A program made the position numbers. From Candidatus Bathyarchaeota archaeon (lineage in GTDB: Archaea > Thermoproteota > Bathyarchaeia > TCS64): DNA of 64,000 nt. Positions 27,001 through 33,000 of the stretch are shown one piece after another (the first letter of the stretch is position 1; every line of letters starts with the position of its first letter). Where the stretch lies: NCBI GenBank assembly GCA_963771885.1, contig CAVYVF010000022.1:64001-128000 (forward strand). The letters are read 5' to 3'.

Positions 27001-30000
27001 CTTGGCCTAGTCAACGGGCTCGGAACCATCGGCTATTCGATAATCACTCCATTCTATGGGTCGCTCATCGACATCACAGGAGGCTACTTCGCCTCGAACA
27101 TGGTGATGATCTGCAGTGCACTCATCATGACCGCCACTATGGTCCTCTTCACGAAGGAGACATACGGTGGGCTGAAGAAGACCAGTTAGACGAACGCTCA
27201 TCCCTTGGGTTAGAGTCCCATAATTTGGGGTTCTGCACAATCTTCTTACCCCGGAACCAGAGAGTCATCGTTTTCCCATTAGGCTGGATCAGGAAGCCGT
27301 CTAAGAATCCTATACCATCGGATGGTGTGCGAATCCCGAACCAGTGCAAAAGCAGGCACCCAACCCAGACATCGTGGGTGATGTATATGTCCAACCCCGC
27401 GGGCTCCGCTGACTCGAGGCTGGCTTGGGTGTGATCCGCGAAGAATTGGGCGAAACTCAACGAGTCGCAGAAGGCAGGAGGCGTTAAACCCGTGCACCAG
27501 TTGTTAGCGAAGTTGATCGACGCTTCGACCTCATCTCGACTCCGCTTAAGGTTCTCAGAGAGATACTTTGAGGCTTTCTCAAGGTCTCGTATCATCAGGT
27601 CATCGATCTTTCTTGAATATGCGGGCTCGTTGCCGCGGGAAGTCAATCCCTCCCCGATGCACTGGGCCGTCTCCTCCGCCCTCTTGATCTTCGTGGAGTG
27701 GAGACGAATCCTTCTATCAGGGGGAATACCTCTCCCGAACTCCACCGCGGCCTCACGCCCCACAATCGTGCATTGTAGCTGGTTACTTGTATCAGGGTTG
27801 TAGGGGGGACGTTCCGTGTGACGGATGTGAAGCACAGCTGGCTTGTCTGGTTCAAGTTCGTTGAGGCTTTCGAGGAGACTCCGTGCAGGCTTACCCCAAG
27901 CCACGGATTTGAGGAAGCTTGCCACGAGGAAGGATTCGCTTCTTTCTTTAAATACTCATCGCGACGACGATGCCGACGCCCTTTTAACCCCTGCCTCAGA
28001 CGGTGGATTTAGAAAATGAACACCACAGAACCTCATACTAATGCTGAGGAAACCATCAGGCGCCTCCCGAAGCTGGAGCAGCACATACACATCATCGGCT
28101 CGACCAAACCTGAGACACTCCTTGCGATCATCGAGGACGGGGGCGTCGAGATGCCCTTCAAGACCCTCGAAGAGGTTAAGACATTCTTCCAGTACAGCGA
28201 CTTCAACCACTTCATCAGCGTCTACAGCACAGTTAACGATTGTATAACCGACCCTAAGCACTACGAGAGGATAACATATGAGATGCTCGAATCCGAGGTT
28301 GCCTGCAACGTCAAGCACGTCGAGGCGATCTTTTCCGCCAACGACCACGTACGCAGGGGACTCGACTACGGTGAGATGCTCGACGCGATAAACACTGGGA
28401 TCAGGCGAGCGAAGAGAAAGTGGGGTATCACATGCACAATCAGGGTCGACCTTGTACGCAACTATGGCCCCAAGGTTGCTCTCAAGGAGCTCGACTGGAT
28501 AAAGGAGAAGAATGACAACATCGTCGCCGTCGACATCGGGGGAAGCGAGGACGGCTTCCCACCAGAGCCCTATGAGAAGGTTTACAAGAAGGCGAAGGAC
28601 CTCGGGCTCCACCTCGTCGCCCACGCAGGTGAAGCAGCGGGGCCTGAGAGTGTCTGGGGTGCAATAAAGACACTCGGGGTAGAACGCATCGGTCACGGGG
28701 TCACGGCGGCAACAGACCCAGCCCTCCTCAGCGAGATAAGGGCGAGGGGCATCGCGATCGAGACCTGCCCTGTCAGCAACCTCCGAACCGGGGCTGTGAA
28801 GACAATAAAGGACCACCCCATACGCAAGTTCATCAACAGCTGCATCCCCGTCAGCGTCAACAGCGACGATCCTCCCATGTTCAATACCGACATATACAAT
28901 GAATACCTCCAACTCCACCGCGAGCAGGGCTTCACAATAGACGAACTCATGAGAATAAGCCTCGACTCCATATCTACAAGCTTCCTACCAGACAAGAGAA
29001 AAGAGGAGCTCCACGGGGAGTTCCTGAGCGAATATCGTGAACTGAAGAGAAGCTAGAGCTCGAAGTGGAACAGTGAGAAGTCAACGTTGGGCGAGTAGTT
29101 CTGTGTCAGGTCCTCACCTGTCGAGTGTATCGCCTTGACCTGTTCAGCTATGGTGTCGAACACGTTGTCGATGAATATCGGCGGGGGGACGAAGTGGTTA
29201 TAGAGTAAACCAGCAGCGACTATTCCGCCCCCGATCACGTCCGATACCATAAACGGCTCGGGAAACATCACCAACGCAATGCCGAACGAAATGAGGCTGT
29301 TACCCGCGCCGCCGTAACCGTGGTCGTATAACCCGTTTACTTCCTGCAGAGCGCTGTTGAAGCCGCTCAACAGGCTCGCGGACTCGGTGAAAGATCCGCC
29401 GAGCTCCTTAGCAGCCGTTACTACATGATCCGTCTTTGGAGTAATCAAATGAATCACCTAGAGCGCCTTGAACTGGTCGAACCACTTGTCGTACTCCTTC
29501 ATCATCTCCTTGGAGACGCTTGGCTTGCGGTTCGTGATTGCGTGTTTGAAGTCACCCATCGATAAGGGTCTCGGCTTCTTCGTTGTGTTATCGGCCTCGC
29601 CCGACTCGAATAGCTCTCTGATGACCTCCTGGCGGACGACTTGGCAGATGTCCTTGATGTCACTGCCACTGTAGCCGTCCGTCAACTGCGTCAGTGTGTG
29701 GAAGTCCACGTCGCGCGTCATCTCAAGCTGCGCGCTGTTGAGCTCGAACATCTGTAGGCGCGTCGCGTAGTCGGGGAGTGGTATCATGACCCTCTTCTGG
29801 AACCTACGTATGAAGGCCCAATCCAGGTCCCACGGCTTGTTCGTCGCCGCGACGACGTATAGATGGTAGTTCTTGCCTTTGTCCTGGAGGCCGTCCATCT
29901 CCTTGAGGAACTGGTTCCTCATGCGGACCTCGCCTCCGACCTCATTCGTGTGTACGCCGAGGATGCTGTCCACCTCGTCTATGAATATTATTACGGGTTT

Positions 30001-33000
30001 GCCGCCCATGGCTGTGCGGCGTGCGCCGCCGAATATCTTAGCGACGTTCTGCTCCGCCGCGCCGAGCCACTTCGACATTATGTTGGCTGGATCAATCTGG
30101 ATGAAGTCGGCGTCGATCTCGTTTGCGACTGCCGCGGCGATGAGCGTCTTACCGCATCCGGGAGGACCGAACAGGAGCAGACCTCTCGACCACCCAAGTG
30201 GGAACAGGTCGGGGCGCTTCACTGGGTAGACTATGACCTCCTTGATCGCCTTCTTCGCGTCCTCGAGGCCGGCAACGTCGCCCCAGGTGATATTCGGTCT
30301 CTCTGAGGGCTCGACGTCATCCTCTTCGACCGATTGCTGTGAGCTGGTCTGCTTCGTCTCGAAGCTCGTGAACTTCTCGACCCCCATGTCCTCGCCGTCC
30401 TCCGACTTGAGTAGGCGGATGCGCTCCTGGTAGGTCGTAACCTTCTCGACGTAGAACTTGTTGAACGTGTAATCGGGGTAGAGCTTTATGAGGCGTGTGA
30501 GCTGCTCGACGGCGCGCTTGTAGGACTCGGTGGCCTTGTCCTTGTCGCCCATCTTGTCGTACTTGACGGCGTCGGCTGCGTACTTCATCGCCTCGTTCTC
30601 AAGCATTGTGGCGACGCTCATGCTACAATCTCCTCCATCTTTAACGGTCCCTTAGCCCTGATCTGGTCGAGCATCTTAACGACGTCGTCGGATAGCATGC
30701 TCCAGTCGTTCATCTGTTCGGATGCCTGCGTTGTTCGAGTGGCGAATGTGGGCTCATAGCCATACGCTATGGCCTCTGCCTGCCTCGATGCGACCTTTGG
30801 CGCGACAGCGATCGGTGGCTCCGGGAAGCTCTCGTGGAGGCTATTCTCCACCATATTGCTGACCTCCTTCAGTATGTCCGCGCTTTCCTGGCTCTTGACG
30901 CTGAACATGCCGTCGAGTGAGGGTTGGCTGAAGTCGATCTTGGTCTGCATCAGCGTATCGCTGGCGACCTCGTTGAGCTGTTCTAGACCCGCGGCGAACT
31001 GGGGCATAACCTTCTGAACGTCCGCGCTGACCTCCCTGACGCACTCCGAGATGGGACGCATCTCCTGAACGACCTGGTAGAGGTCGAGGAAGTTCTCGAT
31101 GTCGGATTGTGATGCAGTCTATGGCGAGTTGGCTCTGCGTGATGATCTGTTTGACGTGACGTACTCTGCTGAGCTCGTTCGCATAGATCTGTGCGCGTGC
31201 AGTATCCTTTTTCTGAACCGCCTTGCCCACCATCTCGAACAAGGTCCTATCTCTCTCCCTGAGCTTCGAGTTGACTTGTTCGAGCCTCATGCTCTGGCGC
31301 TTTAGCTCGTTCACCGACTCGGGGGTGGGAAGGATACTCTGCCGGCGGTTCAGGATTCCCAACTTGGCTATTCTCCTTTAACTTTGACTAGAATTGGGCC
31401 TTGTAACGCAGGTGCCATGCGCCCCCACCTGGGGGTAGCTGAAAAAAGAGGGAGAGGGGCGTGTATCCATACCTGATTCGCTCCCTCTTACACTCTGTCG
31501 CCTAGGCCTGTGCCTACCTTGCTCTGGCCGCCGGGCAGCTCGGGGAAGGTGTCCTTCATCCTCGACTCGGCGATGGTCTGGGCCTCGTCCAATATCTTGG
31601 CCGAGTCCTCGTTCACCGACTCGAAGTTGATGGTCATGCCTGTGACTGCGCCTGCGTCTACGACGATGCCGCTGAGGAGGTTACCGATCTCGCCCAACTC
31701 CTTCTCAGCCTGTGGGCTGATCGCTGCCATGCCGCTCTTGATGTCACCGATGACACCGACCACCGGGAGGAGGGTGACTGCTACGTCACCCAGCTCCGTG
31801 ACGGTCTTGAGGCGCAGCGTGATCTGCTCTAGGGCGAGCTTGGCGTGGAAGATCATCTTCTCCATCTTGCGGATCTCGGCGAGCTCATTGGCGAAGACGT
31901 TCGCGCGAGCCGTGTCGTGCTTCGCGTAGGCGTCGACGATCCTGTTGAATATCGTCTTGTCGCGCTCCTGGAAGCGGTTGCTCGCCTGGTCGAGACGCTG
32001 GATCTGCATCTCGATCCGCTTTGTGGCAGCGTCAAGGCGGGGCTTGAGGGGGCCCGGGGGCCTGACGGCGTCCTTTACCTTGGTGGAAAAGGACGGTTCA
32101 TCTTTTCTCTCCCATCTATTACCGAAGCTCATTATAGATTACGCTCGAAGATAGAAGAGCCCTGTAAACCGCATAGAAGTGTTGCATAGCGGATGTAAAG
32201 AAAGGTGCACTTTCACTCACTTTTACAGGTTCTTTTTGACGGTTAGTTGTAAGGACCTCTTTGGTATATGAGAGCAACTCTTACACATATAAATCAAAAC
32301 AACTTTTCATAGATAATCTGTTTTTAATGTTCTGAGCATTTTCTCATTACGTCAGTCTTAATATATAAAGTGGGCAATCCTTGAGCAAGGTAATTCGTAT
32401 GGCAGGTAGATGGACCGTTTTTGGCGTATTCGCCGTGCTCGGCTTCGTCGGGGGTATCCTCGCGAACTGGGCGTATAAGCAGGTGTTCCCGATGCTCGTC
32501 AGTATGTTCCCGGACCTCTTCACAGCGGAGTGGTTCCTATCGGGTGTCGGTGGCACAGTGCTCACGCTTCTGATTGTGGTCGTCTGGGCATCCTTCTCCC
32601 CCGATAAGTAAAGCGGCTGAAGGACCCAGTCTTTTTCCTCTTTTCGAGAGACTCGCAAATGTTTATTGCATCACCGCCTCTAGTCTCTCTGAGGTGCGGG
32701 GTATGGATCGGATATCTCTTAGGCTCGACCTTCATGTCCACACCCGTGCCAGTGTCGACTCCGTGAACACGATCGGCGACATCAACGGTAGGTGTAGGGA
32801 GCTGTCGATGGATGGCTACGCTATATGTGACCATGACTCCACAGATTCTCTTGCTGAGGCATCCGCTTCCTCTATGGGACTCGTTGTCGTCCCGGGGCTC
32901 GAGGTCACGGCTCGTGGAGCCCATATCCTATGCCTTGACCCGAGTGACTCGATTCCGTCCCACCGCTCGATCGCCGAGACGGTTGAGAGGATACATGCAC

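Follow-up and report, generated by a model that had tools for sequence, protein, structure and literature searches.

How would an archaeon divide whose genome encodes ESCRT-III proteins and a Vps4-type ATPase without FtsZ, SepF or CdvA, and how could such a gene set have arisen? This question is raised by a cdv locus in the genome (G000) of a Candidatus Bathyarchaeota archaeon of genus g1 (UBA8941) in family TCS64; positions refer to the window, meaning the whole analysed stretch of 64,000 nt (Table 1). It touches on a problem posed in PMC7613921, namely why FtsZ/SepF and ESCRT-III occur together in some archaea and whether they act jointly. Order-wide counts cover 79 genomes, and the class sample comprises 122 genomes outside the order and 49 within it; genera g11, g10 and g12 are g3, g4 and g2 of the genome-wide survey's note, paired through their counts. 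The reading favoured here, at a probability of roughly 60%, is that an ancestor with both division systems underwent reciprocal losses, leaving G000 with an ESCRT-III division free of CdvA.

Table 1. Features of the cdv locus and the adjoining ftsZ2 site (window positions)
Feature	Position	Strand	Observations
Hypothetical protein, 134 aa	29053..29457	minus	Hydrophobic stretch; abuts cdvC stop; no Pfam match
cdvC/Vps4, 387 aa	29458..30621	minus	Pfam MIT, AAA and Vps4_C; overlaps cdvB stop
cdvB-type ESCRT-III	30618..31362	minus	An extra base near 31102 splits the frame; of the C-terminal winged helix a single helix is left
Gap of 125 bp	31363..31487	none	Position of cdvA in other Bathyarchaeia (class order cdvB1-cdvA-cdvB-cdvC)
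cdvB1-type ESCRT-III, 214 aa	31488..32132	minus	Snf7 E 0.0013; no winged helix; C-terminal proline-rich stretch
Two-helix membrane-like protein, 76 aa	32381..32611	plus	Divergent from cdvB1; accompanies cassette
PHP-family gene	32574..33362	plus	Pfam PHP; lies 3' of ftsZ2 throughout the class; gene probably starts downstream of the listed ORF start
Vacant ftsZ2 site	33362..33397	none	Between PHP stop and MiaB-like gene; no FtsZ tail match in G000
MiaB-like radical-SAM/TRAM gene	33181..34674	plus	Lies 5' of ftsZ2 throughout the class; match from ~33397 onward; Pfam of orthologue

The CdvB/CdvB-like/CdvC locus announced by the survey is present as a cdvB1-cdvB-cdvC operon. The closest solved structure to CdvC is CdvC/Vps4 (4LCB, E 1.4e-120), and in trees the protein groups with TACK CdvC, apart from other AAA ATPases; the 39%-identity MIT-AAA proteins of G010 and G013 (genus g3 in the present labels) fall outside this group. 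For the ESCRT-III proteins, single-sequence Snf7 Pfam scores (18.9 and 23.9) lie under the cut-off of 27.3, the structure model is helical, and the profile of CdvB alignment A3 matches solved CdvB2 (E 2.5e-46) and CdvB (E 3.5e-36). CdvB1 is 77–96% identical across g1, g10 and g11, and we take its proline-rich stretch to be MIM2-like. In the relative G067, whose CdvC is 100% identical to that of G000, cdvB is intact (247 aa, Snf7 E 3.6e-5); compared with it, the extra base in G000 is probably an assembly error, because other genes of this genome are frame-split too (3 of 16 tested, with rpoB and dnaK also split). CdvB matches number 2–8 per g1 genome, the copy number of extra paralogues being variable. 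The further CdvB paralogues reported for G000 hold up in part: only three of five copies are secure, since the pair on contig C1 sits in DNA whose tetranucleotide make-up (6.7, against 0.9–3.0 for 50-kb pieces of C23) differs from that of the main contigs.

Two small genes accompany the operon. The 134-aa gene occurs in 10/11 g1, 1/1 g10 and 3/3 g11 genomes and in none of 34 other order genomes sampled; it is also found in 35 of the 122 genomes outside the order and is absent at 80 cdv loci there. Within TCS64 it belongs to the cdv cassette. Membrane-like genes of ~70–76 aa are found at the g1, g10 and g11 loci and also accompany cdv in families f11, f19, f27, f28 and f29, and the Atlas matches of the 76-aa protein are unnamed Bathyarchaeia clusters (0.91–0.93).

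The missing cdvA could be traced by comparison with the class, where the order cdvB1-cdvA-cdvB-cdvC is seen in 13 of 15 genomes and a gene of 240–250 aa at the cdvA position scores above the Pfam CdvA threshold in L043 and in L095. As a positive control, the 122 genomes outside the order yielded CdvA in 115 and CdvC in 116, compared with 0 and 15 of the 49 inside it. In G000, no CdvA with PRC domain and coiled coil was found (best PF18822 E 0.5; best six-frame HMM E 0.33), and cdvA was not found in any order genome (0/79). A search with a Bathyarchaeial CdvA alignment returned 0/23 Cdv genomes and ten weak, coiled-coil-only matches in non-Cdv genomes. Winged-helix HMM scores of CdvB are 16 bits in g11, 3–6 in g1 and below 0 in g10, against 88–93 for seven training rows, which are biased upward, and weak, sub-cut-off Pfam winged-helix matches occur only in the three CdvA-bearing CdvBs. 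The CdvB model has a disordered linker with one low-confidence helix at 225–236 and no strands; the broken winged helix at the C terminus, through which canonical CdvB binds CdvA, is found by neither HMM nor model. An operon without cdvA, and its CdvB without the CdvA-binding winged helix, are new features.

Order-wide counts of FtsZ (E<=1e-25; g1 3/18, g11 0/4, g10 1/1, g12 25/32) and CdvC (18/18 in g1, 4/4 in g11 and 1/1 in g10, plus the two 39% matches in g3) reproduce those of the survey. SepF was detected in 2/18 genomes of g1 and 57/61 of the remaining order genomes, in agreement with the claim that UBA8941 mostly lacks FtsZ and SepF, and CdvB in 22/79 order genomes, comprising 18/18 in g1 and, where the survey had left a gap, 0/32 in g12. 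It was likewise borne out that g11 keeps SepF without FtsZ. The statement that g10 keeps FtsZ and SepF stands, but its FtsZ, like the three of g1, is a paralogue other than the site FtsZ2, so the survey's 'canonical FtsZ' is correctly counted yet pools two paralogues. Altogether, the counts support the view that most of genus g1 has CdvA-less Cdv alone and that the two systems are divided by lineage.

The cdv operon of G000 lies at a class-wide MiaB-ftsZ2-PHP site. PHP is a neighbour of ftsZ in most of the 80 class loci, MiaB lies upstream in 70/80 and at least one flank is present in 80/80, the ancestral order being MiaB(-) ftsZ(+) PHP(-); within the order, the MiaB-like gene is present in 76/79 genomes. 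The site FtsZ fits archaeal FtsZ2, forming a clade apart from the Spt5-context clade in a tree without a named FtsZ2 reference. An RHH-like ORF, its family read by eye, lies directly upstream in 5/15 loci listed (L140, L144, L156, L184 and L188); a cdrS-like RHH gene upstream is the context given for FtsZ2, and translation genes that for FtsZ1, in PMC8178401 and PMC8406309. Intact FtsZ2 was found in 0/23 Cdv genomes versus 21/24 genomes of the eleven remaining genera, and never together with Cdv in the 79 order genomes. Its remnants adjoin the cassette in G077, G025, G026, G027 and G029 and occur where SepF persists: G077 retains SepF and a remnant, g10 and g11 SepF and the FtsZ2 tail.

In G000 itself, six-frame HMM scans gave a best E of 0.77 for FtsZ and 0.15 for its tail, no FtsZ (GTPase domain), SepF or actin-like candidate was found, and the sepF site is vacant on the 173-kb contig C7. 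As the survey had stated for all three proteins, FtsZ, SepF and CdvA are missing, and at site level the first two absences are real. That they reflect an incomplete or contaminated assembly is barely credible: G000 has a completeness of 92% and a contamination of 6.7% and contains indels and contigs that look foreign, and the ftsZ of G064, on a contig of 4.4 kb, groups within g12, but flanking genes abut at the ftsZ2 and sepF sites on long contigs, and the ftsZ2 site is vacant in 14 of the 15 g1 genomes in which it is assembled, the 15th carrying a remnant.

Cdv occurs class-wide and was most likely ancestral, so the order's unusual events are the loss of Cdv and the complete loss of CdvA; outside it, 74 genomes show CdvC without an FtsZ match and 19 carry an FtsZ2-type FtsZ with CdvA and CdvC. 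Species trees place g11 and g10 on early branches and join g1 to g12, its Cdv-less sister (SH-aLRT 97–99); the deepest branches, those of g11 and g10, have SH-aLRT 82–95 from quick searches, another tree leaves them without resolution, and the amino-acid make-up of G025 is atypical. One clade of the three Cdv genera is rejected (AU p 2.7e-6). The survey's interpretation, a single stepwise FtsZ-to-Cdv switch with g10 and g11 as surviving intermediates of g1, rightly captured the lineage split and the partial states, and the CdvC of the three genera does form one clade; given the AU test, the position of g1 beside g12, the different FtsZ paralogue of g10 and the class-wide presence of Cdv, it has become very improbable. 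We infer instead that the TCS64 ancestor would have carried SepF and, besides FtsZ2, a second FtsZ of divergent type; its Cdv operon would already have been without cdvA and have moved beside ftsZ2, after which lineages would have retained one system. The genera g11, g10 and g1 would have kept Cdv and dropped the FtsZ2 GTPase, and the remaining genera would have dropped Cdv, g12 losing the FtsZ2 GTPase as well and retaining SepF, a mini-FtsZ2 and the second FtsZ. Later, and more than once, g1 lineages would have lost sepF and the remnant of the tail, G000 being an end state. Of a double set inherited from its ancestor, the family thus seems to have shed opposite halves, since g1 kept ESCRT without CdvA and its sister g12 lost ESCRT and kept a GTPase-less FtsZ2.

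An old horizontal gain, in which a CdvA-less cassette from an f11/f19/f27–29-type Bathyarchaeia donor landed beside ftsZ2 and descended or spread among g11, g10 and g1, displacing FtsZ2 in place, is unlikely but has points in its favour. The order's three other families have Cdv in 0/8 genomes, the ~70–76-aa membrane gene is shared outside only with those donor-type families, and the CdvC stem of the family is long (0.27–0.43). The cassette lies on one side of PHP in g1 and on the opposite side in g10/g11, which needs rearrangement or separate insertions. One gain and two old transfers are also fewer events than vertical descent, which requires at least four Cdv losses within TCS64, plus another three in the order's other families if Cdv is class-ancestral. 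Against this, Cdv is near-universal in the class, and the CdvC of TCS64 is one clade (100/99; quick tree (g11,(g10,g1)) at 83) nested in no donor or other family, an open fork. Moreover, the CdvC path between g1 and g10 is 0.95 versus 0.43 for RpoB, a ratio of 2.2 (1.05–1.7 for three outside pairs), and thus lacks the shallow divergence that recent transfer gives, although a transfer could be masked if CdvC evolved faster once cdvA was lost.

Under the favoured reading of reciprocal losses, we infer CdvA-free ESCRT-III division in G000 from gene content. CdvB, CdvB1 and a third paralogue would polymerise on the membrane via their own N-terminal helices, as Sulfolobus CdvB paralogues bind membranes (10.1101/2025.09.15.676241), and the CdvC MIT domain would bind C-terminal motifs of the CdvB paralogues and remodel the ring to constrict. 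In Sulfolobus, CdvA and the winged helix template the ring; here both partners are missing, so the ring would have to be placed by other means. The two small membrane-like genes of the cassette are candidates for this, as is a stand-alone PRC barrel of 100 aa (C7:88178-88480). CdvA and its contact with CdvB are essential in Sulfolobales (PMC7615534), so a set without CdvA may fail to divide cells. It is conceivable, if rather improbable, that CdvB/CdvC here makes vesicles or repairs membranes and that g1 divides via an unrecognised system: both CdvA and the winged helix tying CdvB to mid-cell are gone, the number of extra CdvB paralogues varies as given above, and vesicle roles are attributed to some ESCRT systems of archaea in PMC11188069. 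The vesicle roles described there, however, concern ESCRT coexisting with FtsZ, whereas here Cdv and intact FtsZ2 do not occur together in any of the 79 order genomes, CdvB1 is well conserved and G000 offers no other candidate.

Like the CdvABC systems of Sulfolobales and other Bathyarchaeia, the operon combines ESCRT-III paralogues with a MIT-AAA-Vps4_C ATPase in the class order; unlike them, it lacks cdvA, has an eroded CdvB winged helix, stands at the ftsZ2 site and includes two extra small membrane-like genes. ESCRT-III and Vps4 without CdvA are shared with Methanomethylicia and Caldarchaeales, where CdvBC occurs without CdvA (PMC9723716), and with FtsZ-less Ferroplasma and Acidiplasma, which have a minimal ESCRT (PMC11188069). 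In those lineages the lack of CdvA is lineage-wide, whereas here its loss can be traced against CdvA-bearing class orthologues, as can the disappearance, in closely related genomes, of the binding domain and of FtsZ2/SepF. The lack of FtsZ in a bathyarchaeon is in itself no novelty: three of five rows in the supplement of PMC8178401 are ESCRT-only Bathyarchaeia without FtsZ and SepF, in a table that leaves CdvA unscored, and such ESCRT-only genomes are common in the class sample, where CdvA is present in 115/122 genomes outside the order. The family amounts to a series of natural knock-outs in closely related genomes, which have only FtsZ2, only CdvA-less Cdv, or neither, and its CdvA-free ESCRT-III/Vps4 set bears on ring positioning without CdvA.

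The Cdv-less sister g12 carries a mini-FtsZ2 of 75–135 aa in 28/28 assembled sites. It consists of an N-terminal peptide and a tail, the only parts that match FtsZ2 HMMs; two copies checked had no Pfam match, and the Tubulin/FtsZ GTPase domain is missing. Its sequence marks it as an FtsZ2 derivative, non-working as FtsZ, and dN/dS of 0.04–0.54 indicates purifying selection. Modelled with a SepF dimer, it scores 0.87 (best control 0.01), a similar complex having been solved, and two repeated tail motifs are modelled on two SepF protomers. As in archaeal FtsZ2-SepF systems (Haloferax; Odinarchaeota, where OdinFtsZ2 binds SepF via its tail, PMC12583498; M. smithii, with a SepF-FtsZ tail structure), the site FtsZ of other Bathyarchaeia has an upstream CdrS-like RHH gene and a C-terminal tail; the g12 gene differs in retaining peptide and tail under selection without the GTPase, and so separates anchoring tail from GTPase. 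It is tentatively proposed, with the odds against it, that TCS64 holds two undescribed simplified division machines from one locus: in UBA8941, ESCRT-III and Vps4 without CdvA, FtsZ or SepF would use a new positioning factor, and in g12 the mini-FtsZ2 would clamp the SepF dimer by its two tandem motifs as adaptor or regulator for the divergent, tail-less second FtsZ. On this proposal, SepF and the FtsZ2 tail might even contribute to placing the ESCRT ring in g10, g11 and G077, where they persist beside Cdv. In an unrooted quick tree the second FtsZ ('B') groups separately with copies from Methanoperedens, apart from eight Spt5-context rows.

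The genome-wide survey's note had described a Cdv (ESCRT-III/Vps4) operon without CdvA in a genome devoid of FtsZ and SepF, and this feature proved to be real. The solved structure closest to its CdvC is CdvC 4LCB, and a profile built from 12 CdvB sequences matched the solved CdvB2 and CdvB. The CdvB1 product has a C-terminal proline-rich stretch that is MIM2-like.

Arrangement of the cdv locus (window coordinates)
Feature	Position	Strand	Remark
cdvB1	32132-31488	minus	
cdvB	31362-30618	minus	frame broken by an additional base near 31102, compared with the congener G067
cdvC	30621-29458	minus	MIT, AAA and Vps4_C domains
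134-aa hypothetical gene	29457-29053	minus	directly after cdvC
76-aa membrane-like gene			divergent from cdvB1
PHP gene, then MiaB-like radical-SAM gene			beyond the 76-aa membrane-like gene

The split in cdvB is probably an assembly error, since G067, which is near-identical here, carries the gene as an unbroken 247-aa ORF, and since pyrG, rpoB and dnaK are also frame-split in the genome under study (3/16 genes tested were frame-split). For the same reasons, a programmed frameshift or a cdvB pseudogene is disfavoured. The assembly is rich in indels, and at window 22549-24178 CTP synthase lies in two pieces of 408 and 110 aa, against as many as 566 aa in congeners. Contigs C1, C3, C10 and C17 combine low GC with a foreign tetranucleotide make-up, and C10 duplicates genes of C2 at 65-86%; these contigs are a probable bin contamination from a relative, and the membership of the CdvB pair on C1 is doubtful, similar pairs being found in five congeners. 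C1 also carries long single-base runs. In another genome, G073, two cdv operons with identical CdvC were observed (C24, C26; L003, L004), one of them off the usual site. The 134-aa gene was considered as a specific CdvA substitute; this role is weakened by its presence in 35/122 genomes outside the order, all 35 with CdvA, and its co-occurrence with Cdv inside the order is explained by linkage.

Across the 79 genomes of the order, the survey's counts were reproduced, its genera g3, g4 and g2 being matched by counts to g11, g10 and g12 here. At E<=1e-25, FtsZ was detected in 3/18 genomes of UBA8941 (g1, the genus under study), 0/4 of g11, 1/1 of g10 and 25/32 of g12; CdvC was detected in 18/18, 4/4 and 1/1 genomes of g1, g11 and g10, and SepF in 2/18 of g1 and 57/61 of the remaining genera. 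Genus g12 is now fully covered (CdvB 0/32, SepF 29/32), and one g11 genome, G028, fell below the CdvB cut-off, the gene being cut short by the end of the contig. A Bathyarchaeial CdvA alignment identified no CdvA among the 79 genomes, its ten weak matches being coiled-coil-only and all in non-Cdv genomes; likewise, no hidden CdvA was detected by PF18822, the Bathyarchaeial alignment or six-frame HMM scans. The MIT-AAA proteins of G010 and G013 (L017:754-2406, L018:2250-3347) were rejected as CdvC, as they fall outside the CdvC clade and neither genome has CdvB. The sole PF06723 match in the genome under study, which would have indicated an actin/MreB-like alternative, is the split dnaK.

The absences of FtsZ2 and SepF from this genome are real, as seen at the sites that both genes occupy in relatives. 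In the 13 sepF loci fetched, the gene adjoins a homologue of C7:40743-42668 wherever that side was assembled, and its other flank is a homologue of C7:40225-40830 in nine; in the genome under study a gap of about 35 bp separates these two genes, on a contig of 173 kb. For FtsZ, the class-wide order is MiaB(-) ftsZ(+) PHP(-) MetRS(-), with MiaB upstream in 70/80 loci and at least one flank present in 80/80, and here PHP abuts MiaB at window 33362-33397, with no ftsZ2 between. The FtsZ of this site was named FtsZ2 because a ribbon-helix-helix ORF lies directly upstream in several class loci, the context reported for ftsZ2 (PMC8178401, PMC8406309), and because it forms a clade separate from the FtsZ adjoining spt5/L11. 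A PDB search gave no type for the two FtsZs, the structures available for comparison being FtsZ1 only. MetRS is gone from the site in g1; the best MetRS match in the genome under study (C23:168182) shares only about 40% identity with the copy that other genera carry at the site, and its replacement is possible. A stand-alone 100-aa PRC-barrel protein (C7:88178-88480, L042) was also observed in this genome, which lacks FtsZ, SepF and CdvA.

The note had further proposed a stepwise FtsZ-to-Cdv switch with g10 and g11 as surviving intermediates, and this was not borne out. The class was sampled with 171 genomes of at least 85% completeness, 49 of them from the order and 122 from elsewhere. Among the 122, CdvA was detected in 115, CdvC in 116 and FtsZ (E<=1e-55) in 43; among the 49, the corresponding counts are 0, 15 and 33. 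Outside the order, CdvC was also present in 42/43 FtsZ-bearing genomes, and 74 genomes had CdvC with no FtsZ match at E<=1e-55, a threshold below which divergent FtsZs may score. By these counts, CdvABC is the norm of the class and loss of FtsZ is common, so that the order is unusual for its loss of Cdv and CdvA. The operon outside the order reads cdvB1-cdvA-cdvB-cdvC in 13/15 genomes, with Pfam CdvA above the cut-off in 2/2 tested, and in the supplement of PMC8178401 three of the five Bathyarchaeota rows show ESCRT-III present and FtsZ and SepF absent.

Species trees were built from RpoB (57 genomes, FastTree) and, by quick searches, from 14 markers (21 genomes) and 7 markers (16 genomes). 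All three place g11 and g10 as early branches (weaker, 82-95) and g1 as sister to the Cdv-less g12 (SH-aLRT 97-99 in the concatenations). Uniting g1, g10 and g11 in one lineage, a grouping fixed beforehand by the survey's note, costs 213.7 log-likelihood units (p-AU 2.7e-6). Their CdvC proteins group as a single clade, whose branching order relative to families f8, f13, f19 and f11/f27-29 is an open fork, and the divergence among the three genera is not below the RpoB prediction. Vertical descent with repeated loss is favoured, gain of the operon by an old transfer being the less likely alternative. Furthermore, SepF is kept in G077 and G063 versus absent in their sisters G078 and G064, so that it was lost about three times within g1, if the RpoB tree is right. 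In place of the switch, the preferred reading is reciprocal loss, starting from an ancestor that carried both systems at one locus.

The operon occupies the ftsZ2 site, lying between MiaB and PHP in g10 and g11 and just past PHP in g1, where the link is assembled in 15/18 genomes (G063, G065 and G066 are not assessable). Intact FtsZ2 occurs in 0/23 Cdv genomes and in 21/24 genomes outside g1, g10, g11 and g12, the site being unassembled in G002, G012 and G024. In g1, G077 retains a frameshifted last third of ftsZ2 (68-74% identity across 47 aa and the tail, E about 1e-22), and no remnant was detected at the other 14 assembled sites. In g10 and g11, ORFs of 70-90 aa ending in the FtsZ2 tail were found in G025, G026, G027 and G029 (HMM E 1.5e-9 to 3.8e-8), with pN/pS 0.24-0.45 for those of g11. 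In a Bathyarchaeon outside TCS64, a full cdvB1-cdvA-cdvB-cdvC operon stands right after MetRS-PHP at the ftsZ2 position, with no tail remnant (L043:1890-8588); it is the only cdv locus beside PHP/MetRS among 80 from named genomes and is possibly an independent move to this site.

Both Cdv and intact FtsZ2 are missing from the sister genus g12. Its site was fetched in 31/32 genomes, G046 being left out because its MiaB begins at a contig edge, and the gap is unassembled in G030, G031 and G052. An open frame is present in all 28 assembled genomes (e.g. G057, L034:15761-15991; others among L035 and L213-L240): 22 are complete ORFs of 75-135 aa, three reach the contig end and three have variant starts. 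The 22 complete ORFs open with the N-terminal peptide of FtsZ2 and close with its tail, with no GTPase between. With G035 and G055 excluded, and with pairs that are not independent, dN/dS was 0.06-0.26 for the short form of this mini-FtsZ2 (43/45 pairs computable), 0.04-0.28 for the middle form (3 pairs) and 0.21-0.54 for the long form (21 pairs). These ratios indicate that mini-FtsZ2 is conserved under purifying selection, and its occurrence in three length classes suggests that deletions took place separately or that the gene was remodelled later. FtsZ2 remnants were found only together with SepF, except in G045, G053 and G055 (genomes 72-87% complete), in which no SepF was detected. A model of two G057 SepF chains with the mini-protein of that genome scored 0.87 (best control 0.01), passing a mark reached by 116/157 solved complexes and 2/215 mismatched pairs, counts that are only roughly valid here. 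Runs shared at least 91% of contacts, with partner pLDDT of at least 71, and the similar motifs at mini-protein residues 48-52 and 68-72 touch different SepF chains in the model. Such a doubled tail motif occurs in 36/77 intact site FtsZ tails. The pass may stem from likeness to the SepF-FtsZ tail complex already solved (PMC8178401), and binding of the mini-protein stays a prediction; for OdinFtsZ2, the tail is reported as required for SepF binding (PMC12583498).

Loss of CdvA has a counterpart in CdvB. Where an operon carries CdvA, its CdvB terminates in a winged helix, to which CdvA binds, and the CdvBs of TCS64 retain the last helix of this fold alone; an HMM of seven outside tails gave 3-6 bits for g1, 16 for g11 and negative scores for g10, compared with 88-93 for its own rows, which are biased. 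Besides the ESCRT-III helices, the CdvB model of G067 (mean pLDDT 69, pTM 0.39) has a disordered linker and a single helix of low confidence. CdvA has been lost together with the site on CdvB that binds it. In Sulfolobales, CdvA is essential and its contact with CdvB matters for division (PMC7615534), and all Sulfolobus CdvB paralogues bind membranes via N-terminal helices (10.1101/2025.09.15.676241). From these losses and this mode of binding, we infer that ESCRT-III rings could anchor themselves to the membrane without CdvA and be remodelled by CdvC, their placement depending on some other factor. CdvBC without CdvA is likewise reported from Methanomethylicia and Caldarchaeales (PMC9723716).

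The FtsZ-less state in Bathyarchaeia is already known. The passages of PMC8970359 consulted do not mention these archaea. In the literature outside subscription journals and the supplements of PMC11188069, which may list such genomes, no title or abstract opening on TCS64 division genes or a GTPase-less archaeal FtsZ was found. What appears to be new is an operon at the ftsZ2 site with neither CdvA nor the CdvB winged helix, together with the conserved mini-FtsZ2.

Other FtsZs persist in a few Cdv genomes. Those of G025, G066 and G078 fall in another paralogue group, which is tail-less, and on the contigs of G066 and G078 the neighbouring genes match genes of the genome under study at up to 91% and 68%. 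The FtsZ of G064, encoded on a contig of 4.4 kb, is nested among those of g12 and is possibly a contaminant. Beside the second-type ftsZ of G066, G078 and G025 lies a divergent low-complexity partner of 167-193 aa (L022:10380-10961, L023:3063-3608, L024:10271-10774), with short repeated motifs near its end and no Pfam match. In addition, proteins of about 890 aa with a weak tubulin-domain match occur in many genomes of g11 and g12 (e.g. G027:C23:31759-32019) and were not found in g1, and tubulin-like proteins of about 455 aa and 350 aa occur in g12/g13.
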